Below are positions 44,968 to 51,154 of a DNA stretch of 64,000 nt, one piece after another; position 1 is the first letter of the stretch, and every line of letters starts with the position of its first letter. The stretch is taken from assembly GCA_964549595.1 (NCBI GenBank), contig CAZJWK010000005.1, positions 1,393-65,392 on the forward strand, written 5' to 3'. Under the pieces are notes generated by a model. The model made no database searches, had not been told where the DNA came from, and saw nothing but the letters and a program-made list of their open reading frames with translations. The stretch comes from an uncultured Sphingobacteriales bacterium (GTDB taxonomy: Bacteria > Bacteroidota > Bacteroidia > CAILMK01 > CAYYUA01). The translations under genes and the position numbers were made by a program.

Positions 44968-45039
44968 GCGGGAATAGCTCAGCGGTAGAGCACAACCTTC
45001 CCAAGGTTGGGGTCGCGGGTTCGAATCCCGTTTCCCGCT
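44968..45039 (+). tRNA. tRNA-Gly(CCC)
   Basis: 72 nt: acceptor GCGGGAA/TTCCCGC, D-arm AGCTCAGCGGTAGAGC, anticodon arm CAACC-TTCCCAA-GGTTG, T-loop GTTCGAATC, discriminator U; CCA not encoded. Confidence 0.97.
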
Positions 45040-45102
45040 CTTTTTTCTCTCACAATTCCTGTAAAATTATAAAAGGATTCAAAGCTTCAGAAATAGGGCG
45101 CT

Positions 45103-45981
45103 TTAAAGGGACAATTTATAAGCAACAACCCGGTTATCGGAAAAAGTGGGTATAACGGCCAGGCCTTTGGATGGAACGAAATCCATGTCTGCAGCATTTT
45201 GATTAGCCTTCCGGGTATCCAGTAACTTGGTTTTTTTATGGCTACCGGAAAAATCCTGAAGATGCATCCGGCCTTTCCAGTCGGTAGTCAAAAACCTTTT
45301 ATCCCCCAAAGCCACTAAACCGTCTATGGGACCTGTTTTTGTGCCTAGTTTGGTTACAGATTGGTCTTTTAGGCTTAAAGCCAGCAATGCGTCATTATTA
45401 CCCACATAGAGTTTCCCGTTACGACAATACAGCCCATTAGGCCTATTTAAAGCCTCTGCTTGATTCCAGGCCTTTAATTTCCCATCGGAAAGCTTGTAAA
45501 TTTTATCTGCGTACATATCCGAAACATAAACGTTTCTTTCTTTATCAATGGTTACATCATTCAAGAATTTAGCCTCTTTTGCCGGATACTTTTGGATAAC
45601 CTTACCGGCCCTGGTATCAATCACTACTAATTCATCGATATCAGAAACATACAATTTACCTTGGTTCAGAGCCATACCCTTAGGCGCGTTAAGACCCCTT
45701 ATCAATTTCCTGGTTTTGACTTTGCCATTTTCTTTTAAAAGCGTAATAAAGCCGTTCCCTTTCTTTTCCTGAGCATCCCCTGCCATATTGGAGACATAAA
45801 ACACCTCCCTCTTTTTGTTATACAAAGCGCATTCAGGGGTTTTCAATGTTTTTTTGGTTTCCCATTGCTTGGTTACCCCTTCAGCGGTGAAAACCTCCCC
45901 GTTTTGAGACTGACATTGGATGAAGCACAAACCAAATAAAACACTGAATGCCAATAAAAGGTGTTGCTTTAAAATAACCAT
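45103..45981 (-). CDS. SMP-30/gluconolactonase-like beta-propeller lipoprotein
   Basis: Lipobox CFIQ-C; PECALY, YVSNM, LNAPKGM, FLNDV, PNGL, DGLV. Confidence 0.8.
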   Translation of the reverse strand: MVILKQHLLLAFSVLFGLCFIQCQSQNGEVFTAEGVTKQWETKKTLKTPECALYNKKREVFYVSNMAGDAQEKKGNGFITLLKENGKVKTRKLIRGLNAPKGMALNQGKLYVSDIDELVVIDTRAGKVIQKYPAKEAKFLNDVTIDKERNVYVSDMYADKIYKLSDGKLKAWNQAEALNRPNGLYCRNGKLYVGNNDALLALSLKDQSVTKLGTKTGPIDGLVALGDKRFLTTDWKGRMHLQDFSGSHKKTKLLDTRKANQNAADMDFVPSKGLAVIPTFSDNRVVAYKLSL

Positions 45982-47216
45982 AAAAAAGCTTTTTCAAAGA
46001 TTATATACCCACTCATTTTTTCATTAATTTCCTCACTCTGGTTCCCTTCTCATTGGTAACGACTAAGCCATAAACCCCTTTGGCTAAACCGGAAATATTA
46101 ATTCCTATTTGCTTGCCTTTTGCATCGGGAACAGTTTTTAACGTTCTCCCATCCAGGGCTTTGATTGTGATTTTCCCTTTTGAAAGGGCTTTTTCGAAGG
46201 TCACTGTAATTTTTTCCTCTGCCGGGTTGGGCTCTATTTTAAAAGTTTCTCGCTTACTCAAACCCGGTTTAAAGCCCACAGAAGTTACCTCAACACAGGC
46301 GGAGGTATCCTTGCAGCCGTTCTGCGTGACTTCAACCGCATACCTACCATTTGAGAAGGGTTCATAAGTTTTGTTAAATGCGCCGGTAATTGAACTATAG
46401 CCATCATCCTCACACCGGAGCCAGCGGTATTGAGCCCCGCTTGCATTAGCCCTTAAGGTGGTCCCGTTTTTGGTTACCCCGGTATCTACTTCAATGATGT
46501 TAAGGTTAATGTTCAGGATACTATCACAATTGTGAACATTGGTAAGGGTATCCCAATATTTACCGGATGAAGTATAGGTCTCTCCTCCGCTTGGCAGGAT
46601 GTATTCATGACAAGCATCAGGATTGATAGTAACCCGGGATTTTTGGAGGTTCAGGTTAATATCGATAATGCTGTCGCAACCTTGCTGGTTTTCCAATGTA
46701 TCAGTATATTGACCCGTTTTGGTATAAACCTCATCCCCGCTGGGAACCCAAAAACTATCGCAGACACTAGTATCGAGGGAATAGCGATTAATCATTTCAA
46801 GTTGAATACCAATCAAACTATCGCAACCGGATGAGCCGGGAATGGTATCATGATAAAATCCTGATTGGGTATAAGTTTCATCTCCGCTGGGAACCATAAA
46901 GCTATCGCAAACAGAGGGGTAGATGGTATCCCGGTTTTTCACTTCTAAGTCAATGGTAAGAATGCTATCACAACCATTGCTACTGGGTAGGGTATCCCGG
47001 TAGCGACCGGAACCGGTGTAAGTCTCGTCCCCACTGGGCACTGTATACTGATTGCAAACTTTGGGAGAAATAGCATTGTAGGCATTGTTTTTTATGGTTA
47101 GGTCAATCACCAAAAAACTATCACAAGGAGCACTTCTTTTAATCCTGTGCGTATAAACCCCTGAAGAATTGTAGGTTTTGTTGGTTCCGGGAACGGTGTA
47201 GCTACCGCAAGCCACT
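45981..47216. repeat. 1236-bp direct repeat, copy 1
   Basis: Matches 48458-49693 at offset 2477. The encoded C-termini and the shadow ORFs (46080 vs 48557; 46607 vs 49084) are identical; one synonymous mismatch seen (47198 G vs 49675 A). Confidence 0.95.
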
Positions 47217-48391
47217 GGTTTCAAAGTATCTGACGGAAAATTATTTTCAAGCCAGAATATTTCATTTGTTCCAATGTTTGCAGCCACGATATCCATATCT
47301 CCATCCCCGTCAAAATCCGCCGCATCACAAGAAAAAGCGCCTTTGGAGGACACCAAATGATCAGTGAAATTGCCGAGCCCATCATTTTCATGCCAGTATA
47401 ATTTATCTGAAGCAGAAATAATATCTTTATCACTATCTCCATCAAAATCCTTGGCCAATACCTCTTCCGCATTGTTGGTTTGCCCGGATACATTTAACTG
47501 AGTAAAATTTTGATTGCCATCGTTTTGAAACCAATTAACCTTGCTTTTGTACTTCAAACTCGCAAAAATATCCATTTCCCCGTCACCATTCAGATCAGCA
47601 GCCCTGGATCGTTCATAATTACCATTGACTATTTTTATTTTAGTAAAACTATCTTGCCCATTGTTTCTATACCAATTAAGTTCATAAGCTATCGTTGAAT
47701 TTGAAACCAAATCCATGTGACCATCGGAATTAATATCCGCTACATAGACGCCAATGGGTTGATTAAAATTGGGGTCAACTTTTTTTCGAGTAAAACTATC
47801 TTTCCCTTCATTTTTATACCAAACTACTTTATCTTTTGTCCTTAAAGCGGCTGCTATATCTTTTTTCCCGTCACTGTTCACATCTTCCACGTGTAAATTA
47901 ATGGGATCAAAAAGCCGGTTATCTATAGTGTTAAATGTAAAATTTTCATTGCCATCATTTTCAAACCAAGCAATATAACCTTTTGAAGAACCGTTAGCAG
48001 AGGAGACTACCACATCAATATCCCCGTCCTGGTCTAAATCAGTAGGTAAAACATACCTTACGTTATCTTGATTACCAATAAGCTTATGGGTTTTAAAAGT
48101 CCCTTTCCCTTTGTTTTCGTGCCAGAATATTTTTCCATCGGCTGCGCTACTGTTCGCTGAAACGATGTCCTGATCACCATCCTTATCCACATCCGCTGTC
48201 CTCACTAAATGAGCGTCATTTGTTGTTTTAATTACACGAGGAGCACAAAAATTTTGACTGAAAGCTGAATTATTTGCCACAAAAAGAAAAAACAATCCTA
48301 AAACTAAGAAAAGCAACCGCTGGAAGGACTTGAAAGAAAATAAAGCTGATTTAATCATTTTTAACCGCAAATTAAAGAAAATTTTAAGCAC
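46013..48391 (-). CDS. T9SS-secreted FG-GAP/VCBS propeller protein with Cys-paired stalk repeats (paralog 1)
   Basis: Signal peptide; seven D-x-D-x-D-G-x-x-D blades; five 49-51 aa C-x27-C repeats; type-A CTD (KIEPNP...ISGLAKGVY...KLMKK). Start GTG 48391 or ATG 48358. Confidence 0.9.
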   Translation of the reverse strand: MLKIFFNLRLKMIKSALFSFKSFQRLLFLVLGLFFLFVANNSAFSQNFCAPRVIKTTNDAHLVRTADVDKDGDQDIVSANSSAADGKIFWHENKGKGTFKTHKLIGNQDNVRYVLPTDLDQDGDIDVVVSSANGSSKGYIAWFENDGNENFTFNTIDNRLFDPINLHVEDVNSDGKKDIAAALRTKDKVVWYKNEGKDSFTRKKVDPNFNQPIGVYVADINSDGHMDLVSNSTIAYELNWYRNNGQDSFTKIKIVNGNYERSRAADLNGDGEMDIFASLKYKSKVNWFQNDGNQNFTQLNVSGQTNNAEEVLAKDFDGDSDKDIISASDKLYWHENDGLGNFTDHLVSSKGAFSCDAADFDGDGDMDIVAANIGTNEIFWLENNFPSDTLKPVACGSYTVPGTNKTYNSSGVYTHRIKRSAPCDSFLVIDLTIKNNAYNAISPKVCNQYTVPSGDETYTGSGRYRDTLPSSNGCDSILTIDLEVKNRDTIYPSVCDSFMVPSGDETYTQSGFYHDTIPGSSGCDSLIGIQLEMINRYSLDTSVCDSFWVPSGDEVYTKTGQYTDTLENQQGCDSIIDINLNLQKSRVTINPDACHEYILPSGGETYTSSGKYWDTLTNVHNCDSILNINLNIIEVDTGVTKNGTTLRANASGAQYRWLRCEDDGYSSITGAFNKTYEPFSNGRYAVEVTQNGCKDTSACVEVTSVGFKPGLSKRETFKIEPNPAEEKITVTFEKALSKGKITIKALDGRTLKTVPDAKGKQIGINISGLAKGVYGLVVTNEKGTRVRKLMKK

Positions 48392-48457
48392 CTTATAGAT
48401 GATTATACAAGGAATAAAAGTAAAATGTCAATGAATGGTATTTTTCCAAAATTACCC

Positions 48458-49693
48458 TAAAAAAGCTTTTTCAAAGATTATATACCCACTCATTTTTTCA
48501 TTAATTTCCTCACTCTGGTTCCCTTCTCATTGGTAACGACTAAGCCATAAACCCCTTTGGCTAAACCGGAAATATTAATTCCTATTTGCTTGCCTTTTGC
48601 ATCGGGAACAGTTTTTAACGTTCTCCCATCCAGGGCTTTGATTGTGATTTTCCCTTTTGAAAGGGCTTTTTCGAAGGTCACTGTAATTTTTTCCTCTGCC
48701 GGGTTGGGCTCTATTTTAAAAGTTTCTCGCTTACTCAAACCCGGTTTAAAGCCCACAGAAGTTACCTCAACACAGGCGGAGGTATCCTTGCAGCCGTTCT
48801 GCGTGACTTCAACCGCATACCTACCATTTGAGAAGGGTTCATAAGTTTTGTTAAATGCGCCGGTAATTGAACTATAGCCATCATCCTCACACCGGAGCCA
48901 GCGGTATTGAGCCCCGCTTGCATTAGCCCTTAAGGTGGTCCCGTTTTTGGTTACCCCGGTATCTACTTCAATGATGTTAAGGTTAATGTTCAGGATACTA
49001 TCACAATTGTGAACATTGGTAAGGGTATCCCAATATTTACCGGATGAAGTATAGGTCTCTCCTCCGCTTGGCAGGATGTATTCATGACAAGCATCAGGAT
49101 TGATAGTAACCCGGGATTTTTGGAGGTTCAGGTTAATATCGATAATGCTGTCGCAACCTTGCTGGTTTTCCAATGTATCAGTATATTGACCCGTTTTGGT
49201 ATAAACCTCATCCCCGCTGGGAACCCAAAAACTATCGCAGACACTAGTATCGAGGGAATAGCGATTAATCATTTCAAGTTGAATACCAATCAAACTATCG
49301 CAACCGGATGAGCCGGGAATGGTATCATGATAAAATCCTGATTGGGTATAAGTTTCATCTCCGCTGGGAACCATAAAGCTATCGCAAACAGAGGGGTAGA
49401 TGGTATCCCGGTTTTTCACTTCTAAGTCAATGGTAAGAATGCTATCACAACCATTGCTACTGGGTAGGGTATCCCGGTAGCGACCGGAACCGGTGTAAGT
49501 CTCGTCCCCACTGGGCACTGTATACTGATTGCAAACTTTGGGAGAAATAGCATTGTAGGCATTGTTTTTTATGGTTAGGTCAATCACCAAAAAACTATCA
49601 CAAGGAGCACTTCTTTTAATCCTGTGCGTATAAACCCCTGAAGAATTGTAGGTTTTGTTGGTTCCGGGAACGGTATAGCTACCGCAAGCCACT
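48458..49693. repeat. 1236-bp direct repeat, copy 2
   Basis: Begins TAAAAAAGCTTTTTCAAAGA and ends GCAAGCCACT, as copy 1 does. Confidence 0.95.
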
Positions 49694-50799
49694 TTTTTCA
49701 TGGTATCTGCCAGGAATTTATTTTCAAACCAATACACCTTTCCTTTATCCTCATTAACCAAAGCCACATCCTTATCACCATCTCTATCAAAATCTGCGGC
49801 ATTAATATCTGAACCACCAATATTAGCGGTTATTAAGTGGTCTGTAAAATTTCCATTTCCATCATTCTCGTGCCAATATACCTCATTGGAGGCCGATACT
49901 ATATCCAAATCACCATCAGAATCTAAATCCAATGGTAAAACACCATCTACATCTACGGTTTGATTAGTGACATTATACTCAGAAAAATTTTCTTGCCCGT
50001 CATTTTGAAACCATGAAATTTCATCATCAAATGTGAAAGAAGTTACAATATCTATTTCACCATCCTGATCAAAGTCACCTTCTCCTATATTACGATGTTT
50101 GTCCCTTGAAATTAAATTACTTATAAAACTATCATGGCCATTATTTTTATAGTAGATCATTTCAAACGCAATAGTGGAGGTGGCAACCACATCTTTATAC
50201 CCATCTTTATTCAAATCCTCGACAAATAGGCCATTGACTTCATTGAAAGAGGAGTCAACAATCATACGGGTAAAATTTTCACTCCCATCATTTTTATACC
50301 ATACTACTTTATCCTTACCATTTAAACACGCCGCAATATCCATTGCCCCATCCCTGTTAATATCTTCCACTTCAAGGTCAATCGGGTAAGATAGTTGAGT
50401 GGATATGGTATGATTAGAAAAGTTTTGATTACCATCATTTTCAAACCAGAAGAATTTGTCCCATGAAGAAGCCACAATGTCAATATCTCCGTCCTGATCA
50501 AGGTCTGCAGAAGCAATATCCATAACCACCTTTTCATTGTTCGTAATTGTATGATTTTTAAAGTTGCCATCCCCATCACTCTCATGCCAAACTATCTTAT
50601 TATCCTCCTCAAAAAAATCACCGGTTGCTGAAACGATGTCATGATCCCCATCACTATCTATGTCCGATGTTTTCACCAAATGAACTTCCTTGGCATTCAT
50701 GATTACCCTGGATGCACAAAAATTTTGGGAAAAACCGTAGGAATTTCCCATCAGCAAGCAAATTAAAAGATTGAATAAAATAATAAAGCCTCTTCTCAT
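48490..50799 (-). CDS. T9SS-secreted FG-GAP/VCBS propeller protein with Cys-paired stalk repeats (paralog 2)
   Basis: Same architecture as paralog 1; the propeller is diverged, while the stalk and CTD protein sequence is identical. Confidence 0.9.
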   Translation of the reverse strand: MRRGFIILFNLLICLLMGNSYGFSQNFCASRVIMNAKEVHLVKTSDIDSDGDHDIVSATGDFFEEDNKIVWHESDGDGNFKNHTITNNEKVVMDIASADLDQDGDIDIVASSWDKFFWFENDGNQNFSNHTISTQLSYPIDLEVEDINRDGAMDIAACLNGKDKVVWYKNDGSENFTRMIVDSSFNEVNGLFVEDLNKDGYKDVVATSTIAFEMIYYKNNGHDSFISNLISRDKHRNIGEGDFDQDGEIDIVTSFTFDDEISWFQNDGQENFSEYNVTNQTVDVDGVLPLDLDSDGDLDIVSASNEVYWHENDGNGNFTDHLITANIGGSDINAADFDRDGDKDVALVNEDKGKVYWFENKFLADTMKKVACGSYTVPGTNKTYNSSGVYTHRIKRSAPCDSFLVIDLTIKNNAYNAISPKVCNQYTVPSGDETYTGSGRYRDTLPSSNGCDSILTIDLEVKNRDTIYPSVCDSFMVPSGDETYTQSGFYHDTIPGSSGCDSLIGIQLEMINRYSLDTSVCDSFWVPSGDEVYTKTGQYTDTLENQQGCDSIIDINLNLQKSRVTINPDACHEYILPSGGETYTSSGKYWDTLTNVHNCDSILNINLNIIEVDTGVTKNGTTLRANASGAQYRWLRCEDDGYSSITGAFNKTYEPFSNGRYAVEVTQNGCKDTSACVEVTSVGFKPGLSKRETFKIEPNPAEEKITVTFEKALSKGKITIKALDGRTLKTVPDAKGKQIGINISGLAKGVYGLVVTNEKGTRVRKLMKK

Positions 50800-50929
50800 A
50801 AAGGTCGAATTTAAACTTTGAAAAAATCAATACATATTAGTCCAAGAAAAAGTTACCAATACGGAACGCAAAACCCTTCCCTCTTTGTATAAACGGTGTA
50901 GAAAACAAATTTTTTAAAAAAACCCCGCA

Positions 50930-51154
50930 ATGAACACTTACGAAAAACAAACCCATAAAGCCAAAGTCCGGCGCGTATTAGGTTACAGCCTTTTATGGTT
51001 TTTCCTGGCCTTTTTAATTTGGTTTGTTTCTTCCTGGACCGGAAAAAATTACCCCATGGATAGCTTTTTAATCGGATTTTTAATCTTAATAGGATTGGCA
51101 AGGGTTTATCAAGCCGCCGGTTTTTACAAAAAGGAAAAGGAGTACTTAAAATAA
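50930..51154 (+). CDS. Small hypothetical membrane protein (2 TM)
   Basis: 74 aa, two hydrophobic helices with basic termini, A-rich leader; stop lies 5 bp from the convergent gene's stop. Confidence 0.55.
   Translation: MNTYEKQTHKAKVRRVLGYSLLWFFLAFLIWFVSSWTGKNYPMDSFLIGFLILIGLARVYQAAGFYKKEKEYLK

Follow-up and report, generated by a model that had tools for sequence, protein, structure and literature searches.

Two tandem genes that share a near-identical 3' half

The 64,000-nucleotide stretch analysed here (the window) belongs to contig CAZJWK010000005.1 of an uncultured Sphingobacteriales bacterium and carries two neighbouring genes for paralogous proteins of 781 and 769 amino acids (aa), which are predicted cargo of the type IX secretion system (T9SS). 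Both proteins have the same order of parts: a predicted signal peptide, a 7-blade FG-GAP propeller (the head), five ~48-aa repeats with two Cys each, an Ig-like domain, and a type-A T9SS C-terminal sorting domain (CTD). Both open reading frames (ORFs) are intact, and each has its own start codon and predicted signal peptide. The heads are homologous but diverged, whereas the part that follows them, which we refer to as the stalk-CTD half, is almost the same in DNA sequence (Table 1).

Comparison of the window with itself at a fixed offset of 2477 bp aligned two blocks of 1236 bp, copies A and B, with a single mismatch. The block begins with the first stalk residue (KPV/ACGSY vs KKV/ACGSY), runs through the five repeats, the Ig-like domain, the CTD, and the stop codon, and continues for another 32 bp; copy A terminates on the first base of the ATG of the downstream NHL gene. 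Downstream of the block, the same offset gives an identity of ~0.23, which is background, and the heads are ~0.61 identical in nucleotide (nt) sequence by codon alignment. Divergence estimates (NG86) differ accordingly between the two halves. The 399 stalk codons are 100% identical in aa and 99.9% identical in nt sequence, with one synonymous difference (synonymous divergence, dS, 0.004; nonsynonymous divergence, dN, 0), whereas the 367 aligned head codons show 61% nt and 49% aa identity (proportion of synonymous differences, pS, 0.72; dS ~2.4, which is saturated; dN 0.39). Fourfold sites at conserved residues are identical at 174/174 positions in the stalk vs 15/54 in the heads. One segment is thus far more alike than the rest and has a sharp boundary, the pattern of partial concerted evolution. 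Saturated silent sites in one half against 0.4% in the other exclude duplication of the whole unit followed by even divergence.

The identity of the block is neither chance nor low complexity: the five repeats of one gene share only 48–59% nt identity with each other. Within a protein, they are 33–57% identical in aa sequence and are old. No additional copy of the repeat unit occurs elsewhere in the window, and exact nt matches between the aligned heads reach 17 bp at most. The idea that the heads have a "shoulder" next to the stalk, where divergence would be intermediate, was rejected: 7/11 codons near the boundary are identical, which does not differ from the ~55–60% in the rest of the head. 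The first-pass annotation, made from the sequence alone, had described the near-identical unit with its one synonymous mismatch, the order of domains, and the abrupt change in divergence at the head/stalk boundary. The fixed-offset comparison, the Pfam and NCBIfam matches together with the structure models, and the head-vs-stalk dS comparison, respectively, bear these three readings out.

The heads match FG-GAP_3 (PF13517) with 158.6 and 123.8 bits (cut-off 26.9), and each carries seven DxDxDG loops. AlphaFold, given an alignment of 10 sequences, models head 1 with confidence as a closed propeller (predicted local distance difference test, pLDDT, 89; predicted template-modelling score, pTM, 0.88). 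The seven repeats and the closed fold identify a 7-blade FG-GAP/VCBS propeller. Its Foldseek neighbours are AUDH and CRTAC1 (TM-score relative to the query, TMq, 0.74–0.80), with FG-GAP-type propellers overall at TM 0.7–0.8, and matches extend to ITFG2, integrin alpha-V, Bap1 of Vibrio cholerae, and propeller lectins of Photorhabdus; a sequence search of the PDB with head 1 gave no match at E <= 0.01. The propeller is probably a Ca-dependent binder of a ligand or glycan, and by fold-level resemblance a ligand- or glycan-binding or lectin/adhesin role of the heads is plausible. Read by eye, both precursors begin with a basic n-region and a hydrophobic core, end their signal peptide in (A/G)FS, and continue with QNFCA(P/S)RVI.

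The stalk repeats follow the consensus C-x2-Y-x-VPSGDETYT-x-SG-x-Y-x-DT-x5-GCDS-x3-I-x-L, and no Pfam or NCBIfam model matches over them. The CTDs match PF18962 with 37.5 and 39.4 bits (cut-off 27) and TIGR04183 with 32.0 and 32.4 bits (cut-off 23). When the stalk profile was compared with the PDB, the CTD alone had matches, which are solved T9SS CTDs. The stalk model is all-beta, with moderate confidence in the repeats and values of ~90 in the Ig-like domain and CTD. Its Foldseek matches are generic Ig chains at TM ~0.2, topped by fragments of Aureispira GhpA, and were not used for family assignment. Both proteins are predicted to be exported by the T9SS and displayed on the cell surface, with the CTD directing secretion and attachment to the outer membrane. 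Type-A CTD cargo is anchored at the cell surface by its C-terminal end, as established in Porphyromonas gingivalis. With such anchoring the repeats would serve as a spacer that holds the propeller off the cell, and we infer that repeats and Ig-like domain form a rod that presents the propeller distally. T9SS machinery components are absent among the window ORFs scanned; a BamH-like gene typical of Bacteroidota is present in the window.

Table 1. Coordinates of the gene pair, its domains, the repeat copies, and the flanking genes in the window
Feature	Coordinates	Strand	Remarks
Gene 1, T9SS cargo protein, 781 aa from ATG	46013-48358	-	ORF reaches GTG at 48391; database call P0002, 781 aa
Gene 2, 769-aa paralogue, same architecture	48490-50799	-	P0001, 100% identical
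Head 1, signal peptide (AFS/QNFC) and 7-blade Ca-binding-type FG-GAP/VCBS propeller	47213-48358	-	PF13517, 7 stretches
Head 2, propeller homologous to that of head 1 (49% aa identity)	49690-50799	-	silent sites saturated
Five ~48-aa two-Cys beta repeats	46490-47212; second copy 48967-49689	-	all-beta in model
Ig-like Y(Q/R)W-x-x-C domain ahead of CTD	46232-46489; second copy 48709-48966	-	alignment conservation; pLDDT ~90, beta-sandwich
Type-A T9SS CTD	46016-46231; second copy 48493-48708	-	PF18962, TIGR04183
Repeat copy A, 1236 bp	45981-47216		gene 1 3' half and 32 bp past stop; fixed-offset comparison
Repeat copy B, 1236 bp	48458-49693		gene 2 3' half and 32 bp past stop; fixed-offset comparison
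Sole mismatch between copies A and B	47198 (partner 49675)		synonymous Tyr TAC/TAT, 18 bp inside head-side edge
NHL-gene 5' segment, first 34 bp after the "A" of the start codon	45947-45980	-	homologous "shoulder" past the identical tract
Diverged relic of NHL 5' end, ATG to AGG	48424-48457	-	between gene 2 stop and gene 1 start; marks end of duplicated unit
Downstream flank, 292-aa NHL/SGL-type propeller gene	45103-45981	-	kept in relatives
Upstream flank, 74-aa membrane protein gene	50930-51154	+	divergent from cassette; homologue of 73-/76-aa genes by relatives' NHL gene

History of the locus and the stalk module in other bacteria

A diverged relic of the 5' end of the NHL gene lies behind copy B, where 24/34 positions are identical to the NHL gene itself (background 0.23, binomial P ~1e-6). 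The duplicated unit therefore took in the first ~35 bp of the downstream gene, and the pair stems from a tandem duplication at this very site. The relic also shows that the junction between the stalk and gene 1 is evolved sequence rather than a chimeric join made by the assembler. This 34-bp shoulder on the 3' side is real, yet too short for dating against the heads. The heads themselves are each other's closest known relatives: they share 49–51% identity, vs at most 44% for full-propeller matches among 1.84 billion representative proteins. Duplication and divergence thus fit better than imported heads, and the head swapping that the first-pass annotation had offered as one option finds no support in this comparison.

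The flanking genes start at 50930 (+) and 45981 (-), and the spacer between them (45982-50929) measures 4948 bp, or ~2 x 2477 bp. In the related loci L082 (8829-8900) and L080 (6623-6736), 72 and 114 bp, respectively, separate the small membrane protein gene from the NHL gene. As these syntenic relatives (~55% aa identity in housekeeping genes) have such short spacers, the cassette was inserted into a divergent promoter region specifically in this lineage; one gene unit of 2.48 kb came to lie in the intergenic spacer and was duplicated there. The order in L082 is GSDH, LiaF-like, 76-aa membrane protein (divergent), NHL, THUMP, NamZ, FtsX, and, farther on, GlmS; L080 differs farther upstream, with ferritin and TerB where LiaF-like and GSDH stand. 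A minus-strand 82-aa ORF in the window (50853-51101) is probably spurious, and the conserved gene at that place is the 74-aa membrane protein gene on the plus strand. The neighbours are housekeeping genes, which include NamZ, a THUMP methyltransferase, tRNA-Gly, FtsX/LolE-like, SOD, GlmS, BamH, TruB, and RibF. The closest relative of the THUMP methyltransferase is only 55% identical, so the lineage is poorly sampled. The sole tRNA in the window, tRNA-Gly (CCC) at 44968-45040 (+), lies between the THUMP methyltransferase and NHL genes; a tRNA-adjacent island was rejected, as the conserved NHL gene separates this tRNA from the cassette and no integrase is nearby.

The regions upstream of gene 1 and gene 2 do not align. 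The NHL relic holds TAATTTTG at 48454-48447, which fits the Bacteroidota -7 promoter motif TAnnTTTG, and a perfect TTGACA-18-TATAAT lies at 48431-48402. A scan for sigma-70-type promoters and terminators gave nothing above shuffled expectation. The relic may have been recruited into the upstream control region of gene 1.

A search of 5.8 billion protein clusters found the stalk at 35–53% identity on many unrelated heads, which include LTD, FG-GAP_2, Laminin_G_3, SBBP, PKD, beta-helix, SdrD_B-type, and FG-GAP_3 domains, in Flavobacteriales (Parvicellaceae, Crocinitomicaceae, Salibacter), Chitinophagales, and Aureispira. Beyond the two proteins of the window, the same collection holds no third head and no stalk copy above 53% identity, and hence no sampled contig carries a third cassette. 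Scanning genome contigs with the stalk profile returned 79 related loci with 10-kb flanks, to which the source genome contributed none. In none of these loci do genes share a repeat of 300 bp or longer that reaches 90% identity, and no identical stalks were found to be common to loci of one related genome; the idea that homogenised stalks are a family-wide feature was rejected on both counts. Tandem pairs of stalk genes in the relatives are diverged throughout (47% aa identity in L005 and 53% in L018 from Salibacter), and the pair in L077 has 51% identity in the head vs 65% at the C-terminus.

The two-Cys repeat is very widespread in T9SS proteins of Flavobacteriales, Chitinophagales, and Aureispira (P0003-P0111, L001-L079), where it occurs in 2 to >20 copies, always ahead of the YQW-x-x-C Ig-like domain and the CTD. 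In P0007, P0020, P0074, and P0095, the repeats of a given protein are almost the same, which suggests recent expansion or homogenisation inside the gene. Three pairs of loci from different metagenome-assembled genomes (MAGs), L010/L014, L023/L028, and L068/L079, share 89–93% nt identity over 2.5–7.5 kb; these are orthologous stalk-gene loci of related species and could serve for a comparison of rates between head and stalk.

Probable gene conversion of the stalk-CTD half and competing explanations

The best explanation, and in our judgement a probable one, is that the two genes are tandem duplicates whose stalk-CTD half undergoes homology-dependent gene conversion. After duplication the heads would have diverged to saturation, while the 3' 1236 bp (stalk, CTD, and 32-bp trailer) would have been kept near-identical by non-reciprocal recombination of the RecA type between the copies, and the dS of 0.004 would make the latest conversion event very recent. 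Recent or ongoing conversion of the stalk had also been proposed in the first reading of the sequence. On both sides, the edges of the tract coincide with the end of perfect homology, which points to dependence on RecA and homologous recombination.

Efficient pairing by RecA usually needs a minimum of roughly 20–30 bp. The longest exact run in the heads (17 bp) is below this length, so recombination cannot extend into them, and by the same limit continued homogenisation of the stalk is required for conversion to stay possible: a stalk that had drifted as far as the heads could not have been converted later. This limit, the position of the tract edges, and the harm that a longer tract would do favour continuing conversion over a single late event. 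Extension of the tract would also be harmful in either direction. Headward, it would erase the divergence of the heads; on the trailer side, either the start codon of the NHL gene would be lost or the region upstream of gene 1 would be overwritten. Mechanics and selection would thus reinforce the same boundaries. A crossover in the stalk could delete or amplify the 2477-bp unit, which is a physical possibility and would be a by-product rather than a demonstrated function.

Several observations weigh against gene conversion between plain duplicates. Silent-site divergence along the head shows no gradient toward the boundary, and hence no sign of a slowly retreating conversion edge. A single genome carries the locus, and the databases hold no sister genome in which the phylogenetic signature of concerted evolution, with copies clustering by genome and heads by orthologue, could appear. 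If the assembly is a short-read graph, a repeat node used twice would be identical by construction, and the copies could in truth differ by a few per cent more. The GC content at third codon positions (GC3), adjusted for amino acids, is 0.322 in both heads vs ~0.415 expected (z -4.0 and -3.8), whereas the stalk is typical at 0.436 (z -0.25) and 29 other genes of the window range from z -2.3 to +2.2. The gap between head and stalk (-0.114) is larger than in all 25 related genes tested, and the break coincides with the domain boundary. Low GC3 in heads was rejected as a trait of the family, with a mean difference of -0.010 and heads lower than stalks in 14/25 related genes. Plain duplication and conversion do not predict this break, which hints either that head and stalk have separate histories or that conversion in the stalk was GC-biased.

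The concern about assembly can be put as an explanation in its own right, in which the tandem pair is real but the stalks are merely similar (e.g., 97–99%) and collapse into one node of a de Bruijn graph exaggerated their identity. The single surviving mismatch (47198) is 18 bp, less than one k-mer, away from unique head sequence, as expected after collapse of the interior, and the interior is absolutely identical over ~1.2 kb, including every one of the fourfold sites. Yet such a collapse needs stalks that are at least ~97% identical, vs 61% in the heads, so the biological conclusion would stand; a chimeric join is made less likely by the evolved 34-bp relic that follows copy B, and both ORFs are intact. 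We regard exaggeration of this kind as unlikely.

A mosaic origin, in which a resident stalk-CTD half acquired one or both heads at the domain boundary, from another paralogue or by horizontal transfer, would account for the position of the GC3 break, which no family trait explains. It would also agree with the fusion of the stalk module to many unrelated heads in other Bacteroidota and with the lineage-specific insertion of the entire cassette. Homology between the heads, however, extends over their full length, and neither has a nearer match among the 1.84 billion proteins than the other head; they are also alike in their low GC3, in the context of signal-peptide cleavage, and in the mature N-terminus. 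The NHL relic moreover records in-place duplication of the whole unit, and no donor for the heads was found. We hold a mosaic origin to be quite improbable. A more elaborate version is less probable still: here the stalk-CTD would be a resident landing pad onto which propeller heads are grafted and kept in register by conversion, with the GC3 break as the scar, and the copy number of the array would vary in the population, giving heterogeneous head display without a recombinase.

The least probable explanation, to which we give very little credence, is that of a programmed, recombinase-free variation system, in which frequent RecA-mediated excision and amplification of 2477-bp units would change the displayed heads and their number. 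The first-pass annotation had proposed such a system, and its geometry is correct: the repeats are direct and in frame, and a crossover in the stalk would remove a 2477-bp unit with gene 1 and leave gene 2 intact and in frame. Any 1.2-kb direct repeat is a RecA substrate, however, so that a potential to delete or expand units simply comes with the repeat and is no evidence of a system. There are two copies only, both are complete genes, and silent or promoterless cassettes are absent; deletion without a reservoir would be irreversible and could not act as a switch. The search for further cassettes with other heads came back empty, both in the window and in the protein clusters, and 0/79 related loci have a comparable repeat. 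No contig with an alternative arrangement was found, an exact 54-nt pattern from stalk and trailer had 0 matches in metagenome contigs, and the exact gene 2 product had no match in the contig index.

Other known routes to surface variation fit no better. The ORFs scanned over 31–64 kb include no recombinase or transposase, and the inverted repeats found are short, imperfect, and AT-rich, none of them convincing; the paired inverted repeats and nearby site-specific recombinase of an invertible promoter or shufflon are thus lacking. The expression site with silent promoterless donors that characterises cassette-type antigenic variation (pilE/pilS, vlsE, msp2) is likewise absent, and conserved, recombination-competent DNA flanks the variable segment on the 3' side only rather than on both sides.

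Parallels in other surface proteins and meaning of the pair

The window pair resembles cases of partial concerted evolution among paralogous surface proteins. In Helicobacter pylori, RecA-dependent intragenomic gene conversion keeps the 3' segment of babA/babB and of homA/homB alike within each strain, whereas their 5' and middle parts diverge (Pride & Blaser 2002, as reviewed in PMC3960876). The likeness lies in paralogues within one genome whose binding part diverges and whose 3' anchoring segment is homogenised. There are also differences: the H. pylori genes belong to another phylum, fold, and mode of anchoring (an autonomous beta-barrel vs the T9SS CTD here), and their loci are dispersed rather than in tandem. 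Formation of chimeras and phase variation have been shown experimentally for bab/hom, whereas the window pair is known from the sequence of one genome.

Closer in phylum and secretion route are the rgpA, kgp, and hagA genes of P. gingivalis, which share identical adhesin-domain repeats; these hamper assembly, and their origin is put down to recombination and the rearrangement of domains (PMC5266723). Like the window pair, they encode T9SS type-A CTD cargo in Bacteroidota. Unlike the pair, they lie dispersed and have haemagglutinin/cleaved-adhesin domains (IPR011628) rather than the two-Cys repeat as shared modules; their heads are proteases, and population data exist for the species, which is a host-associated pathogen. 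Nearest in architecture are proteins from Flavobacteriales and Chitinophagales MAGs (e.g., P0003, P0007, P0037, and P0111), which have the same order of head, CxxYTVPSGDETY repeat, Ig-like domain, and CTD, with stalks 35–53% identical to those of the window. Two of these relatives, P0012 and P0111, have FG-GAP propeller heads, and tandem pairs occur at L005, L018, and L077. The paralogues in these bacteria differ from the window pair in being diverged over their full length (47–65% aa identity), and the 1236-bp identity is specific to the window.

Gene conversion between tandem duplicates is a known process, and the pair reveals no new mechanism. What it probably offers is a clean, well-bounded case of partial concerted evolution in an environmental bacterium of the Bacteroidota whose nearest sampled relatives are ~55% identical in a housekeeping methyltransferase. 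In this T9SS surface protein, the anchoring and spacer half is held uniform while the binding half diversifies, which extends to uncultured free-living bacteria a pattern known from pathogens, i.e., from Bab/Hom of H. pylori and from the gingipains and HagA of P. gingivalis. The pair also brings to notice a ~48-aa stalk repeat with two Cys, very widespread and matched here by neither Pfam nor NCBIfam, that is combined with many types of head. If population data showed polymorphism in copy number or in heads, the locus would be a useful natural model for the evolution of modular T9SS adhesins.

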